A stretch of 46,115 nucleotides of DNA from a virus, in the UHGV virus genome UHGV-1356891, one strand, 5' to 3'. Below the pieces are notes generated by a model. That model was not told the origin of the DNA and ran no database searches. It saw only the letters and a program-made list of their open reading frames with translations. The translations under genes were made by a program, and so were the position numbers. This document shows positions 2,011 to 30,582 of the stretch, one piece after another (the stretch's first letter is position 1; each line of letters starts with the position of its first letter).

Positions 2011-2460
2011 TCACCATTCTTTAAAATCAAAGAGCTTTTCTTTGTATCCTGTTAGACTAGCAAGCTGTTCTTTGTTTAATCCTGGATTTTCAATGATAAT
2101 TTTATCTGATATTAATAGCTCAGCAGCAAATATATTGGCCTCTTTCTCCGGTTTAGCAAGATTAAATAAAGTACCACCAAAAAACATGCATTCACTTCCT
2201 TTATGTAATATTCCATGACCAACTTCGTGAGCTAAGACTATATCAATGTATTTTTTATCTGTTATTCTCGAATTAATACATATGCATGGTACTCCTTCAT
2301 ACTCGATGTAGTAACCTGAATATTTCCCCAAGTCATTCTTTTGTATAATCATGTCTAAATAGTCTGCAATTTCAAATGGATTTCTGGTATTGTATTTTTC
2401 GACCAGTTTCAAAACGGTATCTTTAATAATCTCCAAATTGCTACTCTCCAAAGCCATCAT
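2011..2460 (-). CDS. immA: ImmA/IrrE-family Zn metallopeptidase (anti-repressor peptidase)
   Basis: HEVGHGILH (HExxH) motif. Size and position immediately downstream of the XRE repressor are typical of ImmR/ImmA pairs. Confidence 0.8.
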   Translation of the reverse strand: MMALESSNLEIIKDTVLKLVEKYNTRNPFEIADYLDMIIQKNDLGKYSGYYIEYEGVPCICINSRITDKKYIDIVLAHEVGHGILHKGSECMFFGGTLFNLAKPEKEANIFAAELLISDKIIIENPGLNKEQLASLTGYKEKLFDFKEW

Positions 2461-2863
2461 GCTTTTTTTTGATAATAGCTGCCCTGCAAAGTGATAATAG
2501 CGAGTCTCTTAATAATTTGTCCTCATCTTCATCCCCTGAATAATCCTCTCCATTAAACCTCAGGACAACTGTTTCTTTGTTCCTTATGCGGTCCATAATT
2601 TTGTCAACATCAGTAATAACATTAAGCTCTTCTGATTCAGAAAGAGTGGGCTTCTTTGCTTCTGGGGATTCCTCCTTCCCATTCATTAAGTAATCAACAG
2701 TTACTCCAAAGAAATCAGCAAGTTTTTGCAATCTCTCCGGTGTAGGAGTGCTGTTTTTCCATTTAGAAACAGAACCATTAGAAAAACCCAGCTCCTTTTC
2801 TAGTTTTCCTTGCGAAAGCCCAGTGGATTTTCTTAAGCTTTCAATCCGCTCATATACGGTCAT
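2441..2863 (-). CDS. XRE-family HTH repressor (cI/ImmR-like). Start trimmed to the internal ATG that has an RBS.
   Basis: MTVYERIESLRKSTGLSQGKLEKELGFSNGSVSKWKNS is a classic HTH_XRE. Reverse complement of 2864-2875 gives GAAAGGAGTTAT ahead of the ATG at 2863-2861. The longer track ORF (to 3040) has no RBS and would run through the promoter region. Confidence 0.8.
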   Translation of the reverse strand: MTVYERIESLRKSTGLSQGKLEKELGFSNGSVSKWKNSTPTPERLQKLADFFGVTVDYLMNGKEESPEAKKPTLSESEELNVITDVDKIMDRIRNKETVVLRFNGEDYSGDEDEDKLLRDSLLSLCRAAIIKKKHDGFGE

Positions 2864-2906
2864 ATAACTCCTTTCTAATCCACAGAAAAAATTCTGCAAA
2901 AAAAGC

Positions 2907-2934
2907 TTGACAATTAGAAAGAGTTCTGTATAAT
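2907..2934 (+). promoter_or_regulatory. Sigma-70-like promoter pointing toward cro: TTGACA at 2907-2912, 16-nt spacer, TATAAT at 2929-2934
   Basis: Perfect -35 and -10 hexamers inside the divergent repressor/cro intergenic region. Confidence 0.55.
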
Positions 2935-3011
2935 AGAGATATAGATACAGAAAACTTTCGGTAAAACTTAACGGGTACAGATATTTTTCTAATAAATTGT
3001 GTGGTAACTTT

Positions 3012-3040
3012 ATATTAGAATACTTTCTATGTTTTGTCAA
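3012..3040 (-). promoter_or_regulatory. Candidate minus-strand promoter for the repressor operon: -35 TTGACA (plus coordinates 3035-3040), 17-nt spacer, -10 TAATAT (plus 3012-3017)
   Basis: Reverse complement reads TTGACA, then 17 nt, then TAATAT. It faces the + strand promoter, the usual divergent arrangement of a genetic switch. Confidence 0.4.
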
Positions 3041-3082
3041 GAGTTTTGCTGAACATTTTCTAAAAGAAGAGAGGGTGATAAA

Positions 3083-3265
3083 TTGATTTATGACAAAATT
3101 AAAGAAATATGCGAAGAAAGAGGTTTGAGTGTTAGGTCAATTGAAATCGAAGCTGGATTAAAGAATGGAGCTATTAGCAAATGGAATGATTCAAGCCCAA
3201 CTGTAAAAAGCCTTAAAGCGGTTGCGGATGTTTTAAAAGTCAAAGTGGACAAGCTTATTTCTTAG
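3083..3265 (+). CDS. cro: Cro-like XRE HTH regulator (TTG start)
   Basis: 60 aa. ERGLSVRSIEIEAGLKNGAISKWNDSSPTVKSLKAVADVL is an HTH_XRE. RBS AGAGGGTGA. Divergent from the repressor gene. Confidence 0.75.
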   Translation: MIYDKIKEICEERGLSVRSIEIEAGLKNGAISKWNDSSPTVKSLKAVADVLKVKVDKLIS

Positions 3266-3281: not shown

Positions 3282-3707
3282 ATGAAAGCTGCATGGAATA
3301 TTAATGGAATTTTTAAAGCAGATGCCGAAAAAGTTTCGGATGAATTATCAGCAATTAAGTGTACACCATCCAATGTAGTAGAACATGCCAGGAATCCAAA
3401 AACAGAATTACATAAATGTTTTGAATGGAATGATTCTATAGCAGGGGAAAAATACAGAGAACATCAGGCACAACAAGTAATACGTAATCTTGTAATCATT
3501 AAAGAAGAAACCGAAGAAAAAACACCCATAAGGTTATTTTACAATACCGGAGATAGGACAGGAGAATATAAGCCCGTACAACTGGTAATGAGGAAAGAAG
3601 ATGAATATAAGAATTTGTTAAATAAAGCACAGGAAGAATTAAGGGCATTCAAAAAGAAATATAGCTATTTGACTGAGTTAGAAGAAATTCTTTCCTTAAT
3701 TAGCTAA
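3282..3707 (+). CDS. Hypothetical early protein, co-transcribed with cro
   Basis: 141-aa ORF with a strong RBS (AGGAGGTGAGGTCATG). No recognisable motif. Confidence 0.5.
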   Translation: MKAAWNINGIFKADAEKVSDELSAIKCTPSNVVEHARNPKTELHKCFEWNDSIAGEKYREHQAQQVIRNLVIIKEETEEKTPIRLFYNTGDRTGEYKPVQLVMRKEDEYKNLLNKAQEELRAFKKKYSYLTELEEILSLIS

Positions 3708-3721
3708 TAGTAATAATTGGC

Positions 3722-3822
3722 CTGCTGAATTGACAATATATTGTTTTGTCATCAGCAGCAAAAGAAAATACAGAACATTGCAGAATAAAACATAAGATAA
3801 CAATATATTGCCAATTCAGCAG
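3722..3822. repeat. 24-bp inverted repeat CTGCTGAATTG(A/G)CAATATATTGTT at 3722-3745 and 3799-3822, plus a local 12-bp bulged hairpin at 3722-3759
   Basis: The reverse complement of 3799-3822 matches 3722-3745 with one mismatch. The proximal hairpin pairs CTGCTGA/TCAGCAG and TGACA/TGTCA. Confidence 0.6.
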
Positions 3823-3945
3823 ACCAACAAGCATTATAATTTTTCTGACCGTATACATATTGGAATTAACCAATAAAAAATTAGAACGATGCAATACAGC
3901 AAAATAAATAACATCTCAGAATATCAAATTACAATACAGAATATT

Positions 3946-3971
3946 AAATATTGGATTTAATTCCAATATTT
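3946..3971. promoter_or_regulatory. Perfect operator-like palindrome AAATATTGGA-TTTAAT-TCCAATATTT just upstream of the RBS of the Cas6-like gene
   Basis: 10-bp arms are exact reverse complements with a 6-bp spacer. An additional AATATT repeat lies upstream (CAGAATATTAAATATTGG). Confidence 0.55.
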
Positions 3972-3995
3972 ATGCGGTCAGATATAGGAGGAGAC

Positions 3996-4673
3996 ATGAA
4001 CAAAAAGGAAGAAAGTATTATAACCTTAGAGCCTATTAAAAAGTGCAAAGTTAAGATAGCTTTAGTAGGAGATTCTGATTTGATTTTGAACAAGAAAGCA
4101 AGGTCATATGAAGAATTGGAAATATTTAAGCAATCACATCCAAAGGGAACAAAAATTCCTAAGGAGTTGCAGCAACCTTATAACCTTTTTGAAAAATTAA
4201 TTACTTCTATTACATGGGAAAATAAAATTCCGGTGTATGATGATTATTCCATGTACACAAAAGAAATGTGGGAAGAATTAATTTATTCAAACCGTCCGTG
4301 TATTTTATCAAAAGCATTTAAGGATTCTTTTATGGAAGCGTTTATTTCTTTAGGCTATAAAGAAGCCACAAGTAGGAATGGTACAGACTTTAAACGTTCT
4401 GTCAATATTTCCAATTGGAAGAATCCAGTGGATATTACATCAGCTACATTCAGTCAGCATTTGACTCCAAACACAGGAATCACAAAAACCAATGTTATTG
4501 CTCAATATAATGTTTTTTCTGGATGGAAATGTGAAATTGAAATATCCCACATTGATTATATATTCGCAACAGATACAGTACTTGAAATTATAAACAATGC
4601 TGGTGAGTTTATTGGAATAGGAACACGCAGAGCAGAGGGATTTGGCAGATATCATGTTGAATCAATAAATTAA
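3996..4673 (+). CDS. RAMP/Cas6-like protein with a C-terminal glycine-rich loop. Stand-alone, with no CRISPR array in the window.
   Basis: C-terminus EFIGIGTRRAEGFGRYHV fits the RAMP G-rich loop G-h-G-x5-G-F-G-R exactly. About 225 aa from the ATG at 3996 with RBS AGGAGGAGACATG, a Cas6-like length. The N-terminus has alternating-hydrophobic beta-strand character (KVKIALVGDSDLIL). The track start at 3951 lies inside the palindrome and lacks an RBS. Confidence 0.4.
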   Translation: MNKKEESIITLEPIKKCKVKIALVGDSDLILNKKARSYEELEIFKQSHPKGTKIPKELQQPYNLFEKLITSITWENKIPVYDDYSMYTKEMWEELIYSNRPCILSKAFKDSFMEAFISLGYKEATSRNGTDFKRSVNISNWKNPVDITSATFSQHLTPNTGITKTNVIAQYNVFSGWKCEIEISHIDYIFATDTVLEIINNAGEFIGIGTRRAEGFGRYHVESIN

Positions 4674-4737
4674 ATGCCCCGGCGGTGCTACGAACACCAA
4701 CCGGAGCCGTAACCACATTAACCACACTAATGCGGAT

Positions 4738-4784
4738 ACAGGAATATTTTACCATTTTCTCCTGTATTACGCAAGCACAGGAGG
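4738..4784 (+). promoter_or_regulatory. Three-segment alternative hairpin: ACAGGAA at 4738-4744, TCTCCTGT at 4758-4765, ACAGGAGG at 4777-4784. The middle segment can pair with either flank. Pairing with the 3' segment sequesters the RBS of the downstream gene.
   Basis: The reverse complement of CTCCTGT is ACAGGAG. It occurs both upstream and, overlapping the GGAGG RBS, downstream, ahead of the ATG at 4794. Confidence 0.4.
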
Positions 4785-4793
4785 AAAATATTT

Positions 4794-5060
4794 ATGAACA
4801 TTGAAAACCAGAAGGACAAGCCAACATGGGAAGGGCTGGAGCAGTATTTTGCTGTAGAGGTAATCGAGCAGAGCAAGAGGAATGCAAAGCATTGGTTTAT
4901 AGCGTTCCTGGTAACACTGGCGGCGCTGATAGGCACCAATGCTGCATGGCTTTATACCGCGGGTACATATGACTATGTTTCCCAGGATGGCACTGGACTG
5001 AACAACATCAACACAGGAACACAAGGAGATTTAGAGAATGGGACAGAGAGCCAGGATTAA
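4794..5060 (+). CDS. Small single-pass membrane protein
   Basis: 88 aa with one TM segment (WFIAFLVTLAALIGTNAAWLY). RBS AGGAGGAAAATATTTATG. Confidence 0.5.
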   Translation: MNIENQKDKPTWEGLEQYFAVEVIEQSKRNAKHWFIAFLVTLAALIGTNAAWLYTAGTYDYVSQDGTGLNNINTGTQGDLENGTESQD

Positions 5061-5209: not shown

Positions 5210-5299
5210 GGCGGTGTGTGGCACACAGGTCCAGGTTCGATTCCTGGCATAACCATGGTGGAAAGTAAGAGGGTGCCGGTTCGACTCCGGCCGCCGCCA
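5210..5299 (+). tRNA. tRNA-like element of about 90 nt. It has a 7-bp acceptor pairing and two T-arm-like hairpins. Possibly a type-II tRNA-Ser(CGA)-like gene, or a degenerate or unusual tRNA.
   Basis: Acceptor 5' strand GGCGGTG at 5210-5216 pairs with CGCCGCC at 5292-5298, with one G-U pair. T arm is GCCGG-TTCGACT-CCGGC at 5275-5291. A second hairpin CCAGG-TTCGATT-CCTGG at 5231-5247 could serve as an anticodon arm with anticodon CGA. The D-arm and variable-arm fold could not be resolved cleanly by hand. Confidence 0.35.
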
Positions 5300-8913: not shown

Positions 8914-9288
8914 TTGAAGAATAAAAGAATTGTTAGTGAAGATGTTCAAGCAAGGGTATATAATGCGCTCCTTGTAGGTAAAGAGAATGCATTGAACAGA
9001 GATGAACTGGTATCCAAGATAGGGGAATCGGATAGAGATATACGAACCGCCATTGAGATATTAAGGCACGATAAAGTGATTCTTACATTGCCAACAGGGA
9101 AAGGTTACTATGTACCCCGTGACGATGCACAGGGACGGCAAGAAACAGAGAAATGGCTTGTCAGCCAGAATAATAGGACTAAGAGCATAAAGGCAGCAGA
9201 ACGTGGAGCACAGCTGTTTATAAGCCGGAATAAGAAAAAAGATAAAGGTATTCCCGGTCAGATTAGTGTGTTTGGAGCTGGGTTATGA
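8914..9288 (+). CDS. Putative winged-helix DNA-binding protein (TTG start)
   Basis: RBS AAAGGAGGGATTATTTG. Helix-rich N-terminal region. Confidence 0.4.
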   Translation: MKNKRIVSEDVQARVYNALLVGKENALNRDELVSKIGESDRDIRTAIEILRHDKVILTLPTGKGYYVPRDDAQGRQETEKWLVSQNNRTKSIKAAERGAQLFISRNKKKDKGIPGQISVFGAGL

Positions 9289-9944
9289 GAGATAGTGTTG
9301 TATTTTATCGCAGCTTCTGGGAAGCCATTAAGCAGCTGCCGGAAAAAGAAAGATTGGAATCTCTTACAGCAATCTTAGAATATGGACTTGATGAAATAGA
9401 GCCTAAATCGGCAGGTGTTGCATCGGCAATGTTTTTAATGGCAAAACCACAAATTGATGCGAATAATCGCAGATACCAAAACGGAACTAAGGGTGGTAGG
9501 CCAGTAACCAAACCAGAACCAAACAATAACCTAGAATCAAATTATAATAAACCAAGTGATAACCAAACCATAACCAAAGCAAAACCTAAGGAAAAGGATA
9601 ATGTAAAGGAAAAGGATAATGTAAATGATAATAATAAAAAAACATTTACTCCACCTTCGGTGTCGGATGTTTCCGATTATTGCACTTTGAATGGATATGG
9701 CATTGACCCAGAGAGTTTTGTTGATTTTTATGCATCAAAGGGATGGATGGTTGGGAAAAACAAGATGAAGGACTGGAAAGCCTCGGTAAGGACCTGGGTA
9801 CGAAGCCAGCGGCAGGAATCGACCGCCAAAGGCAGTAAAAATCAGTTTCACAATTTTGACCAGCGAGATATGGACTATGATGCATTGATGTTAAAACAGG
9901 TAAAAGACTGGGTGGCGGAGGAAGCAAATGAAGGAAATACATAA
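9285..9944 (+). CDS. Phage replisome organizer / DnaD-like replication initiation protein
   Basis: N-terminus VVFYRSFWEAIKQLPEKERLE resembles the phage replisome-organizer N-terminal domain. C-terminus FYASKGWMVGKNKMKDWKASVRTWVRSQ is DnaD-like. A low-complexity linker between them carries iteron-like repeats. Confidence 0.65.
   Translation: MRDSVVFYRSFWEAIKQLPEKERLESLTAILEYGLDEIEPKSAGVASAMFLMAKPQIDANNRRYQNGTKGGRPVTKPEPNNNLESNYNKPSDNQTITKAKPKEKDNVKEKDNVNDNNKKTFTPPSVSDVSDYCTLNGYGIDPESFVDFYASKGWMVGKNKMKDWKASVRTWVRSQRQESTAKGSKNQFHNFDQRDMDYDALMLKQVKDWVAEEANEGNT
9480..9625. repeat. Candidate origin iterons inside the replisome-organizer gene. Perfect 18-bp tandem duplication GGAAAAGGATAATGTAAA at 9590-9607 and 9608-9625, plus AACCAAA(C/G)CA repeats upstream.
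   Basis: Tandem repeat read directly from the sequence. Phage origins commonly lie in the linker-coding part of replisome-organizer genes. Confidence 0.45.
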
Positions 9945-29895: not shown

Positions 29896-30180
29896 TATTT
29901 GACCTCCCTCCTATAGCACATGTCCTTAAAAGAAACAGGTTCTAGCGCATAGCGTGAACAGCCTGGAGGTTGAAAAGCGGATGCAATTTCCGGCATGTGC
30001 ATTCCTTCTAAAGGCTATCCTCCTCCCGTAATGGAGATAGAAAAAACTTGTCAGTTATGACCTGGACGAAACTGAAAAATGATACGGCATTGTTTTGGTG
30101 GGATATCGGCGGGCTGACAGCATTTCAGAGTACATATGCGGCGCAAAAAGGCGTGACGAGGAGTTTTCAAGAAATGCAAT

Positions 30181-30253
30181 CGGGAAATAGCTCAGTTGGT
30201 AGAGCAGCAGCCTTATAAGCTGTGTGTCAGAGGTTCGATTCCTCTTTTCCCGA
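30181..30253 (+). tRNA. tRNA with anticodon TAT (tRNA-Ile, AUA-decoding) by manual fold
   Basis: Acceptor CGGGAAA/TTTCCCG. D-arm GCTC-AGTTGGTA-GAGC. Anticodon arm GCAGC-CTTATAA-GCTGT. Variable loop GTGTC. T-arm AGAGG-TTCGATT-CCTCT. Discriminator A. No encoded CCA. Confidence 0.7.
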
Positions 30254-30402
30254 TGTAGTCGGGTCGCTCCCGGATGATGTGAGAGCACGCAGAATGCCTC
30301 ACAGAAAATGACAATGCCTGCTGAAAACTACTGCGATAGTTCCAGGGACTAGGACACGGGACTGAAATTCGCAGTGTGACAATCTAAGCAGGAACTGCAT
30401 CA

Positions 30403-30491
30403 TGAGGATTCGCCAAGCGGTTAAGGCACCGGGTTTTGACCCCGGCAAAGAAGGAACACTCTTTACGCTGGTTCAAATCCAGCATCCTCAG
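30403..30491 (+). tRNA. Type-II (long variable arm, Ser-like body, G73) tRNA whose 7-nt anticodon loop TTTTGAC gives an apparent anticodon TTG (UUG)
   Basis: Acceptor TGAGGAT/ATCCTCA. D-arm GCC-AAGCGGTTAAG-GGC. Anticodon arm CCGGG-TTTTGAC-CCCGG. Variable arm AAAGA-AGGAACAC-TCTTT. T-arm GCTGG-TTCAAAT-CCAGC. Discriminator G. Confidence 0.6.
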
Positions 30492-30582
30492 TTTTGGACA
30501 CGCCAAGTCCTACAAAATGGCAAACCGTTGGTGGACGGTTACACACCTACAAATAACCTAATAACGGAAAAGGAGAATCATC

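Follow-up and report, generated by a model that had tools for sequence, protein, structure and literature searches.

A candidate VIPR-type module with five-nucleotide periodic guide tracts in a temperate phage of gut Lachnospiraceae

The VIPR systems (for Viral Interference Programmable Repeat), first described in 2026, consist of a RAMP protein of ~20 kDa with a single RRM and of guide RNAs (vrRNAs) in which 9-16 YNNGG repeats are followed by a structured tail (10.64898/2026.04.26.720920, 10.64898/2026.04.26.720927). One Vipr protomer binds each repeat and sequesters its GGY triplet, and the two NN bases pair with double-stranded DNA but pass over each third base, which is usually the wobble position of a codon; the targets belong to rival phages or satellites (10.64898/2026.04.26.720920, 10.64898/2026.04.26.720927). 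The loci are minimal, lie apart from CRISPR-cas and are found mostly in viruses or proviruses. Seven VIPR types and 670 Vipr sequences have been reported, some of the types with the 'related consensus' NNNGG, YNNNG or NNNNG, and accessory vap genes accompany them. Vipr of the Escherichia phage SUSP1 polymerises on tandem-repeat guide RNA and binds DNA, and is not a ribonuclease; the SUSP1 vrRNAs, verified by RNA-seq, are co-oriented with vipr, and the system acts as a strand-indifferent roadblock with targets on both strands (10.64898/2026.04.26.720920, 10.64898/2026.04.26.720927). Here we describe positions 3282-4673 of the virus genome UHGV-1356891, a stretch of 46,115 nucleotides (nt) that was analysed as a whole and is hereafter called the window. 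This segment very probably forms a VIPR-type module with three components: a partner gene whose product is winged-helix-like, a pair of guide-RNA units, and a RAMP gene of the Vipr family.

The module resembles the type II VIPR of SUSP1 in several respects. It encodes a small single-RRM RAMP protein with a G-loop (a loop rich in glycine) and a thumb, homologous in sequence to SUSP1 Vipr; it is phage-encoded without a CRISPR array; its guides would be arrays of 9-16 tandem pentamers with 3 invariant and 2 hypervariable nt, presumably transcribed from the vipr strand; guides of sister phages match rival phages with a 1-nt skip on the codon wobble position; and a small gene beside it may encode a DNA-binding accessory protein. 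In place of the GGY of SUSP1, the fixed triplet is ACA, or TGY should the opposite strand be transcribed, and a long-range stem of 20-35 bp closes each tract of the window family, whereas SUSP1 vrRNAs have a hairpin at the 5′ end and a pseudoknotted tail at the 3′ end. The candidate accessory gene comes first, followed by the array and then by vipr, which places every RNA on the upstream side. The protein has 225 rather than 195 amino acids (aa), carries an extra helical insert of ~70 aa, and has replaced D177, W178 and R138 of SUSP1 Vipr. The candidate accessory gene is unrelated to vap1, the identified guides are all sense-oriented where the preprint reports VIPR targets on both strands, and the hosts are gut Lachnospiraceae instead of Escherichia.

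TIGR-Tas is another compact phage-borne RNA-guided DNA-targeting module, with a short structured repeat array and no CRISPR adaptation genes. There the effector carries a Nop domain and works with contiguous split spacers, whereas the window encodes a RAMP protein and a gapped dinucleotide code.

The RAMP protein and its partner gene

The vipr-like gene (3996-4673, plus strand) starts at an ATG within the open reading frame (ORF) 3951-4673 and is preceded by the ribosome-binding site (RBS) GGAGGAG at 3987-3993. The C-terminal end of its 225-aa product reads ...NNAGEFIGIGTRRAEGFGRYHVESIN / ...AGEFIGIGTRRAEGFGRYHVESIN and contains the motif G-I-G-TRRAE-G-F-G-R, the RAMP glycine loop that the first-pass annotation had correctly recognised. 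The loop spans residues 203-217 (nt 4602-4646), and G203, G207, G209 and G217 were invariant in an alignment of 40 homologues. The family comprises 183 clusters of 220-240 aa with 47-98% identity, drawn from Lachnospiraceae metagenome-assembled genomes (MAGs) and metagenomes, and a search with its profile found 604 cluster representatives at E <= 1e-3. No relative was found by protein search among the 50,697 phage genomes of the deposited phage collection. Among GTDB species representatives the sole relative is found in the MAG of an uncultured Dorea sp., on a contig of 44 kb, where the protein is 99% identical and the guides are different.

The first-pass annotation had called this protein Cas6/RAMP-like, for which a duplicated RRM fold would be expected. 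The profile searches did not bear out the Cas6 assignment. Pfam gave no match for the 225-aa protein, and PHROGs assigned it to a family of unknown function. Among NCBIfam models Csx10 alone was found, over the last 35 residues and with a score of 15.9 bits where the cut-off is 177, and PADLOC returned Cas5_IIId and Cas6 below threshold (E 1e-3 to 1e-2; Cas6 E 0.011, residues 142-219), so that all RAMP and Cas profiles remained sub-threshold and were confined to the region around the G-loop. When the profile of 40 homologues was compared with PDB sequences, the one relevant entry was 36pp, 'SUSP1 Vipr protein' (E 1.3e-6), and hhalign aligned residues 105-225 to SUSP1 Vipr with 93% probability (E 2.4e-7).

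The fold prediction spoke against a duplicated RRM fold. The AlphaFold2 model (pLDDT 93, pTM 0.84) contains one RRM with a beta-alpha-beta-beta-alpha-beta core, a long beta-hairpin (the thumb) at ~149-175 and a family-specific helical insert at ~32-100. The best solved structures in a Foldseek search were Csm3, Cmr4 and type VII Cas7 (E 4e-7 to 1e-4, TM ~0.5); the top 50 PDB structure matches comprised Csm3, Cmr4, Cas7 and Cmr1, and Cas6 was absent from them. The protein shares with the Cas7 subunits of type III and VII systems the RRM core, the G-loop, the thumb and, presumably, the periodic holding of a guide RNA. It differs from them in its low identity (10-15%, with no Cas profile at threshold), in its setting without Cas10, Csm or Cmr partners, CRISPR repeats or spacers, and in the guide period, which is 5 nt with 2 read bases here and 6 nt with 5 read bases in type III/VII Cas7. 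The repeat scan gave a sole direct-repeat family in the window (9505-9588) and no CRISPR array, Rfam gave no CRISPR repeat, and no cas genes were seen in the synteny of the 26 loci introduced below, although other cas genes in the window were not searched for exhaustively. Taken together, the sequence profiles and the predicted fold identify the protein as a RAMP of the Vipr/Cas7 kind, homologous to SUSP1 Vipr and located outside any CRISPR-cas locus, as the first-pass annotation had also supposed.

The residues that contact bases in SUSP1 Vipr are largely changed. D177/W178/R179 correspond to T/R/R and R138 to Y, so that the Y3 contact R179 is retained as R212, D177, a G1 contact, is lost, and both G2 contacts (R138 and W178) are replaced in the window family. 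These altered residues fit a changed fixed triplet.

The partner gene, ORF141 (3282-3707, plus strand), encodes 141 aa, with an N-terminal part that resembles a winged helix and a long helix at the C-terminus. ORF141 gave no Pfam, PDB-sequence or Foldseek match and showed no homology to SUSP1 vap1. ORF clustering placed a homologue in 24 of the 26 loci, always 5′ of the array and on the same strand, and the order of partner gene, RNA tracts and RAMP gene recurs in these 24. We regard ORF141, with low confidence, as a candidate DNA-binding accessory ('vap-like') protein.

Periodic tracts, stems and targets of sister guides

Between the two genes lie two vrRNA-like units on the plus strand, unit 1 at 3717-3827 and unit 2 at 3844-3982, each recognised by fold, periodicity, inverted arms and compensatory changes; the RBS of the vipr-like gene starts 5 nt past the end of the unit 2 3′ arm. 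The 288-nt intergenic region folded with z = -8.9 on the plus strand and -9.4 on the minus strand, and none of 200 shuffles equalled either. The arms of unit 1 form an inverted repeat of 36 nt (3717-3752 / 3792-3827, 86%), within which the stem 3717-3745 / 3799-3827 has 27 Watson-Crick pairs and two A:C pairs; a local hairpin at 3722-3755 is an alternative fold of the 5′ arm. The arms of unit 2 (3844-3869 / 3957-3982) form an inverted repeat of 26 nt (92%), and the palindrome at 3945-3972, which includes AAATATTGGA-N6-TCCAATATTT, is an alternative local fold of its 3′ arm. The first-pass annotation had taken this 26-bp palindrome for an operator of the gene, and a 24-bp inverted repeat pair further upstream, together with a 12-bp hairpin, for a possible RNA substrate of a Cas6-like enzyme. 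The elements themselves are real, the repeats do belong to the gene, and an RNA partner is probably involved. The inverted repeats are better read as the paired flanks, or handles, of two guide-RNA units than as an operator or a Cas6 substrate. Among five close relatives the arms were conserved, and four compensatory pair changes were found in unit 1 and two in unit 2.

The stretch between the arms of each inverted repeat is a 5-nt periodic tract. In unit 1 it covers 3755-3809, with ~9-11 pentamers (GCAGC AAAAG AAAAT ACAGA ACATT GCAGA ATAAA ACATA AGATA ACAAT ATATT). In unit 2 it covers 3871-3950, with ~12-16 pentamers, and its core at 3886-3945 reads ACGAT GCAAT ACAGC AAAAT AAATA ACATC TCAGA ATATC AAATT ACAAT ACAGA ATATT. 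A occupied pentamer position 3 in 11/11 units of tract 1 and 15/16 units of tract 2. The phase information amounted to 30-35 bits per window tract, a value reached by none of 5000 shuffles, and the two tracts were the best-scoring sites of the whole 46 kb on either strand.

We compared the window with 25 related loci, all of them IMG/VR viral contigs, to give a set of 26 loci (cited individually by L numbers). Runs of period-5 xCAxx numbered 86 on the gene strand and one on the other strand, and most of them lay between the ORF141 homologue and vipr. The family pentamer was A (.70), C (.86), A (.91), N, N, with G at.17 in position 1. For the canonical YNNGG, no in-register GG run of four or more units was found in the window or the 25 loci, whereas the same scan applied to SUSP1 as a positive control recovered every one of the GGYNN vrRNAs published for that phage, four in total and each co-oriented with vipr. 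Rfam searches of the arrays gave no hammerhead or other family and only a sub-threshold match to a miRNA precursor, which reflects the long hairpin. The window has two units, and relatives have up to seven or more. In L018-L022, a short tract with ACA period (ACAGG ACAGG ACACA ACACT ...) stands just 3′ of vipr (3772-3806, plus strand), and such a downstream tract is present in most of this clade of ~80-kb phages; arrays thus do not occur exclusively upstream of the gene. In L008-L012 (for example L012 2540-2960) the elements between tracts alternate, a hairpin plus GGATGTAGGG and CCCTACATC plus a hairpin. Each element is complementary to both of its neighbours, so that mutually exclusive stems can close successive tracts, a chained architecture unlike the two independent units of the window.

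The tracts are hypervariable and could not be aligned among five phages whose protein is 98-100% identical. In these five close phages the differences were substitutions concentrated at the NN positions, plus indels, and unit 2 differs by a 15-nt (three-unit) indel from the relative in the Dorea MAG. These features are those of guide RNAs, with a fixed triplet that differs from the published GGY and is ACA if, as we infer below, the gene strand is transcribed.

The bases at the NN positions resemble coding sequence. Pooled over 58 tracts (545 dinucleotides), their composition correlated with codon positions 1-2 in the sense direction with r = 0.92, as compared with 0.17 in antisense and 0.33-0.36 in the other phases, and the sense codon 1-2 model was ~21 bits better than the all-phase model. 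A guide common to L006, L007 and L014 has conserved NN positions and drifting triplets; in the L007 unit the NN series is AT TT CA TT TA GG GC AA CG AC. Its 1-nt-skip pattern, with 19 specified bases, matched at least 120 IMG/VR contigs. Among the 120 listed matches all were sense and in frame, with NN on codon positions 1-2, and they encoded MFQFYGANR(T) in ORFs with a median of 653 aa that belong to the family-A DNA polymerases (Pfam DNA_pol_A). Five other guides used as comparison patterns (18-24 specified bases) gave 0, 0, 1, 0 and 0 matches in IMG/VR.

The 1.1 Mb of contigs with PolA matches served as a second target set, for which the guide that had ascertained them was excluded. With 31 other guides of at least nine units and a criterion of at least 85% match, 7/31 guides matched at skip 1, as compared with 1, 1, 0 and 0 at skips of 0, 2, 3 and 4. 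Order-shuffled guides matched in 3/155 cases and reversed guides in none. The further sites in PolA were QEINDRGV and PKLVENITQAISRD; others were LTGTPSSNGLM in an SNF2 helicase, DHGGFVGGV in a VapE primase-helicase (18/18), and AFNSNGN[KR]GIA in an Enc34-type single-stranded DNA-binding protein (SSB), the last matched independently by guides of L005 and of L008/L009. Wherever the reading frame was unambiguous, these further sites were all sense and in frame 0. All nine guides with identified targets have one orientation relative to the gene. This identity with the sense strand holds for guides of L005-L016 against loci L029-L148; the preprint reports targets on both strands. One metagenome (3300021255) yielded both L031, a target phage, and three of the Vipr phages, L005, L007 and L009.

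Several scans yielded no targets. Among the exact 1-nt-skip scans, those with a guide of L020 and a guide of L012 were without match, and one match of a guide of L006 had no extension and was at chance level. When guides were run against the Vipr loci themselves and the window at skips of 0-4, nothing exceeded chance. An outlier at skip 4 (23/28, a guide of L009 on L019) was rejected, because shuffling reached 22 once in 300 trials, ~210 tests had been made, and the 'frame' was a stub of 29 codons. The matches of the sister guides establish, in silico, that this family uses the VIPR code of 5 nt of RNA to 3 nt of DNA against the replication modules of rival phages.

Transcribed strand and competing explanations

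To assign a strand to the guide RNAs, we examined the pairs in the stems that flank the tracts. Read on the gene strand, G:T pairs outnumbered A:C pairs by 122 to 43, and by 74:22 in a curated non-redundant stem set (p = 1.6e-4 against composition). The excess was ~3:1 in nearly every clade, and third-codon-position composition revealed a mild mutational asymmetry only. This preponderance of G:T over A:C suggests that the RNA is probably on the gene strand. The distance from array to vipr RBS is 4-20 nt, in a same-strand operon. Promoter and terminator scans meant to settle the strand gave no conserved signal and no conserved minus-strand promoter; a minus-strand match in L005 (11/12) overlaps the RBS, is absent in L011 and L018, and was discarded. 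Guide-target mismatches of the G:U type numbered five for the gene strand and two for the other, which is weak evidence. On these grounds we consider transcription of the guide from the gene strand probable.

A number of observations weigh against the VIPR-type reading of the locus. C occupies position 2 in 6/11 and 7/16 units of the window tracts, compared with 86% in the family, and the window tracts are more degenerate than the family norm. Homology to SUSP1 Vipr spans only the C-terminal 120 residues. The exact 1-nt-skip pattern of unit 2 had no match in IMG/VR, GTDB genomes or JGI metagenomes. The AT-rich pattern of unit 1 gave seven unrelated matches in IMG/VR, among them a GIY-YIG endonuclease, which we discarded as chance-level. 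Units 1 and 2 of L003/L028 were likewise without match in exact scans. The skip code was thus recovered for sister loci and, in exact scans, not for the two guides of the window; real matches of sister guides are often only 85-95% identical, which makes this a weak negative. With regard to the strand, the stem variation within the window clade is balanced (~6 G:U-type against 5 A:C-type pairs), the minus strand of the intergenic region gives a slightly better fold than the plus strand, and the complement of ACA is TGY, similar to the canonical GGY. From which strand the RNAs come, where they end and how they are processed are features that we infer from sequence.

The strongest alternative is that the guides are transcribed from the opposite strand, antisense to vipr, with the triplet U-G-Y, a relative of G-G-Y that fits 'YNNNG'. 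Such guides would be antisense to the target genes and could pair with the non-template DNA strand or with mRNA. Complementing A(.70)/G(.17)-C-A gives T-G-Y, in which Y is T at.70 and C at.17, so that G2 and Y3 of GGY would be kept, and TGT and AGT are degenerate units tolerated in SUSP1 arrays. The conservation of R179 as R212 with loss of D177 agrees with this triplet, as does the YNNNG variant in the preprint (10.64898/2026.04.26.720920, 10.64898/2026.04.26.720927), which the complement of ACANN, YNNTG, would fit. The single orientation of the 9/9 guides with targets would follow from a mechanism that depends on the strand, for instance pairing with mRNA, and the slightly better minus-strand fold and the lack of wobble bias in the window clade are in line with opposite-strand guides. 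However, both G2 contacts of SUSP1 Vipr are not conserved, the 3:1 excess of G:T in stems runs through nearly every clade, the arrays sit a few nucleotides from the RBS in a same-strand operon with no conserved minus-strand promoter, the RNA-seq-verified vrRNAs of SUSP1 are co-oriented with vipr, and the mismatches, for what little they weigh, favour the gene strand. We therefore consider opposite-strand guides unlikely, though a serious contender. Read on that strand as 'YNNNG', the clade may already be among the seven types of the preprint, and pairing with mRNA could make the protein an RNA-targeting RAMP with a gapped code.

It is also conceivable, and in our estimate somewhat less likely again, that the module is real in the family and decaying or idle in this phage, its tracts having drifted and lost their targets. 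The A at position 3 is kept while many units lack the C at position 2, four guide scans in three collections found no target, and two units is a small number beside the seven or more of some relatives. Nevertheless, the protein is intact and 98-100% identical in at least five phages with differing guides, the stems are kept by compensatory changes, the indels include one step of exactly three units, and the negative scans were exact-match scans that would overlook matches of the identity often seen for sister guides.

The solo Cas6-like endoribonuclease of the first-pass annotation, which would cut the nearby hairpins in a phage transcript or act on host CRISPR RNA, now appears very improbable. 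Like Cas6, the protein has a RAMP glycine-rich loop near the C-terminus and stable RNA hairpins directly upstream, and the PADLOC hit to Cas6, though weak, points the same way. Unlike Cas6, it has one RRM with a thumb instead of two RRMs, its structural neighbours are Cas7 proteins, no CRISPR repeat is available as a substrate, and its solved homologue, SUSP1 Vipr, is a filament-forming guide binder and not a nuclease. A processing substrate would have no need of a tract that is hypervariable, has a 5-nt period and has counterparts in sister phages which match foreign genes by a gapped code. Nothing supported an action on host CRISPR transcripts: no link to a host CRISPR repeat was found, and Rfam gave none in the window or the arrays.

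Least credible of all is that cro/cI-type regulators use the inverted repeats as DNA operators or iterons and that the tracts are an incidental A-rich spacer: the site does lie just 3′ of the lysis-lysogeny switch and short palindromes occur in the arms (e.g. ACAATATATTGT), but 26 loci share this architecture although their arm sequences are unrelated, always tied to vipr and with a strand asymmetry of 86 versus 1, the stems have an RNA-type wobble bias, and the codon-like information of the tracts matches foreign genes.

Phage setting, proposed mechanism and significance

The window belongs to a temperate, Dorea-associated phage of Lachnospiraceae, and the module lies in its early region. The switch region contains the integrase gene (178-1269), an ImmA-like protease gene and a cI-like helix-turn-helix gene, all on the minus strand, followed by the cro-like gene (3083-3265, plus strand). 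Between the cI-like and cro-like genes, a sigma-70 consensus TTGACA-16-TATAAT (2907-2934, plus strand) matches at 12/12 positions; it is likely the early rightward promoter, which would feed the cro-like gene, ORF141, both RNA units and vipr. Within 2011-3265 the gene for the ImmA/IrrE-type metalloprotease adjoins the cI-like repressor gene, which suggests protease-mediated induction, with the VIPR module expressed only after derepression of the early promoter.

Further neighbours of the vipr gene are genes for a small membrane protein and an exonuclease. Directly past the vipr stop lies a GC-rich structured leader (4674-4793, plus strand; z = -4.1) with three hairpins, the last of which pairs with the GGAGG RBS of the small membrane-protein ORF (4794-5060). 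The leader is without 5-nt periodicity and is kept in L001 and L003. A tRNA-like element of 90 nt (5210-5299, plus strand) has an acceptor-like stem ending in ...GCCGCCA, as well as two hairpins that resemble a T-arm, GGTTCGATTCC and GGTTCGACTCC; Rfam scored it as tRNA at 26.1 bits against a threshold of 29 bits, and ARAGORN made no call. L013 has a 90-nt Rfam tRNA match (4140-4229) at a comparable distance 3′ of vipr, which ARAGORN also misses. Three 29-nt AACCA-rich direct repeats at 9505-9588 (plus strand), inside the ORF 9285-9944, look like replication-origin iterons embedded in a replication gene. The segment before the structural genes (29915-30560, plus strand) carries a RAGATH-21 RNA (84 bits), tRNA-Ile(TAT), tRNA-Gln(TTG) and a GP20-b cis-regulatory RNA.

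In the VIPR-type mechanism that we propose for this module, an early transcript would carry both RNA units, and in each unit the flanking inverted repeats would form a stem of 26-29 bp that closes a loop of 9-16 A-C-A-N-N pentamers. Maturation may proceed by cutting of the long stem, for which RNase III is our guess. By homology with SUSP1 Vipr, one protomer per pentamer would hold the invariant triplet and display the two variable bases, and the row of NN bases would pair with DNA while passing over each third base. Because of this skip, the guide would read a conserved protein motif at codon positions 1-2 and ignore the wobble base. Binding would presumably silence the target by repression; for the sister phages the predicted targets are replication genes of rival phages.

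The clade differs from published VIPR in the invariant triplet, the RNA architecture, the candidate accessory protein and the uniform guide orientation. As a tentative proposal that is more doubtful than the module itself, the clade might represent a distinct, uncatalogued VIPR type, with a RAMP re-tuned to ACA, guides looped between long stems, and strictly strand-specific action. The sense bias could reflect a mechanism unlike the SUSP1 roadblock, such as obligate capture of the template strand. If upheld, the uniform sense orientation would call into question whether all VIPRs are strand-indifferent DNA binders.

A clade that keeps the geometry of 5 nt of RNA to 3 nt of DNA with a swapped triplet would indicate that evolution can alter the scaffold part of the code. 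It would also provide natural pairs from which the reading of repeats by RAMP proteins may be understood, DWR versus T/S-R-R in the G-loop and GGY versus ACA in the guide, and an orthogonal second protein-guide pair for programmable repression. For the biology of these temperate gut phages, the arrays would spell the most conserved replication motifs of their rivals (PolA, SNF2, SSB and VapE) with the wobble base omitted, and it is this omission that allows one guide to cover at least 120 diverged viral contigs.

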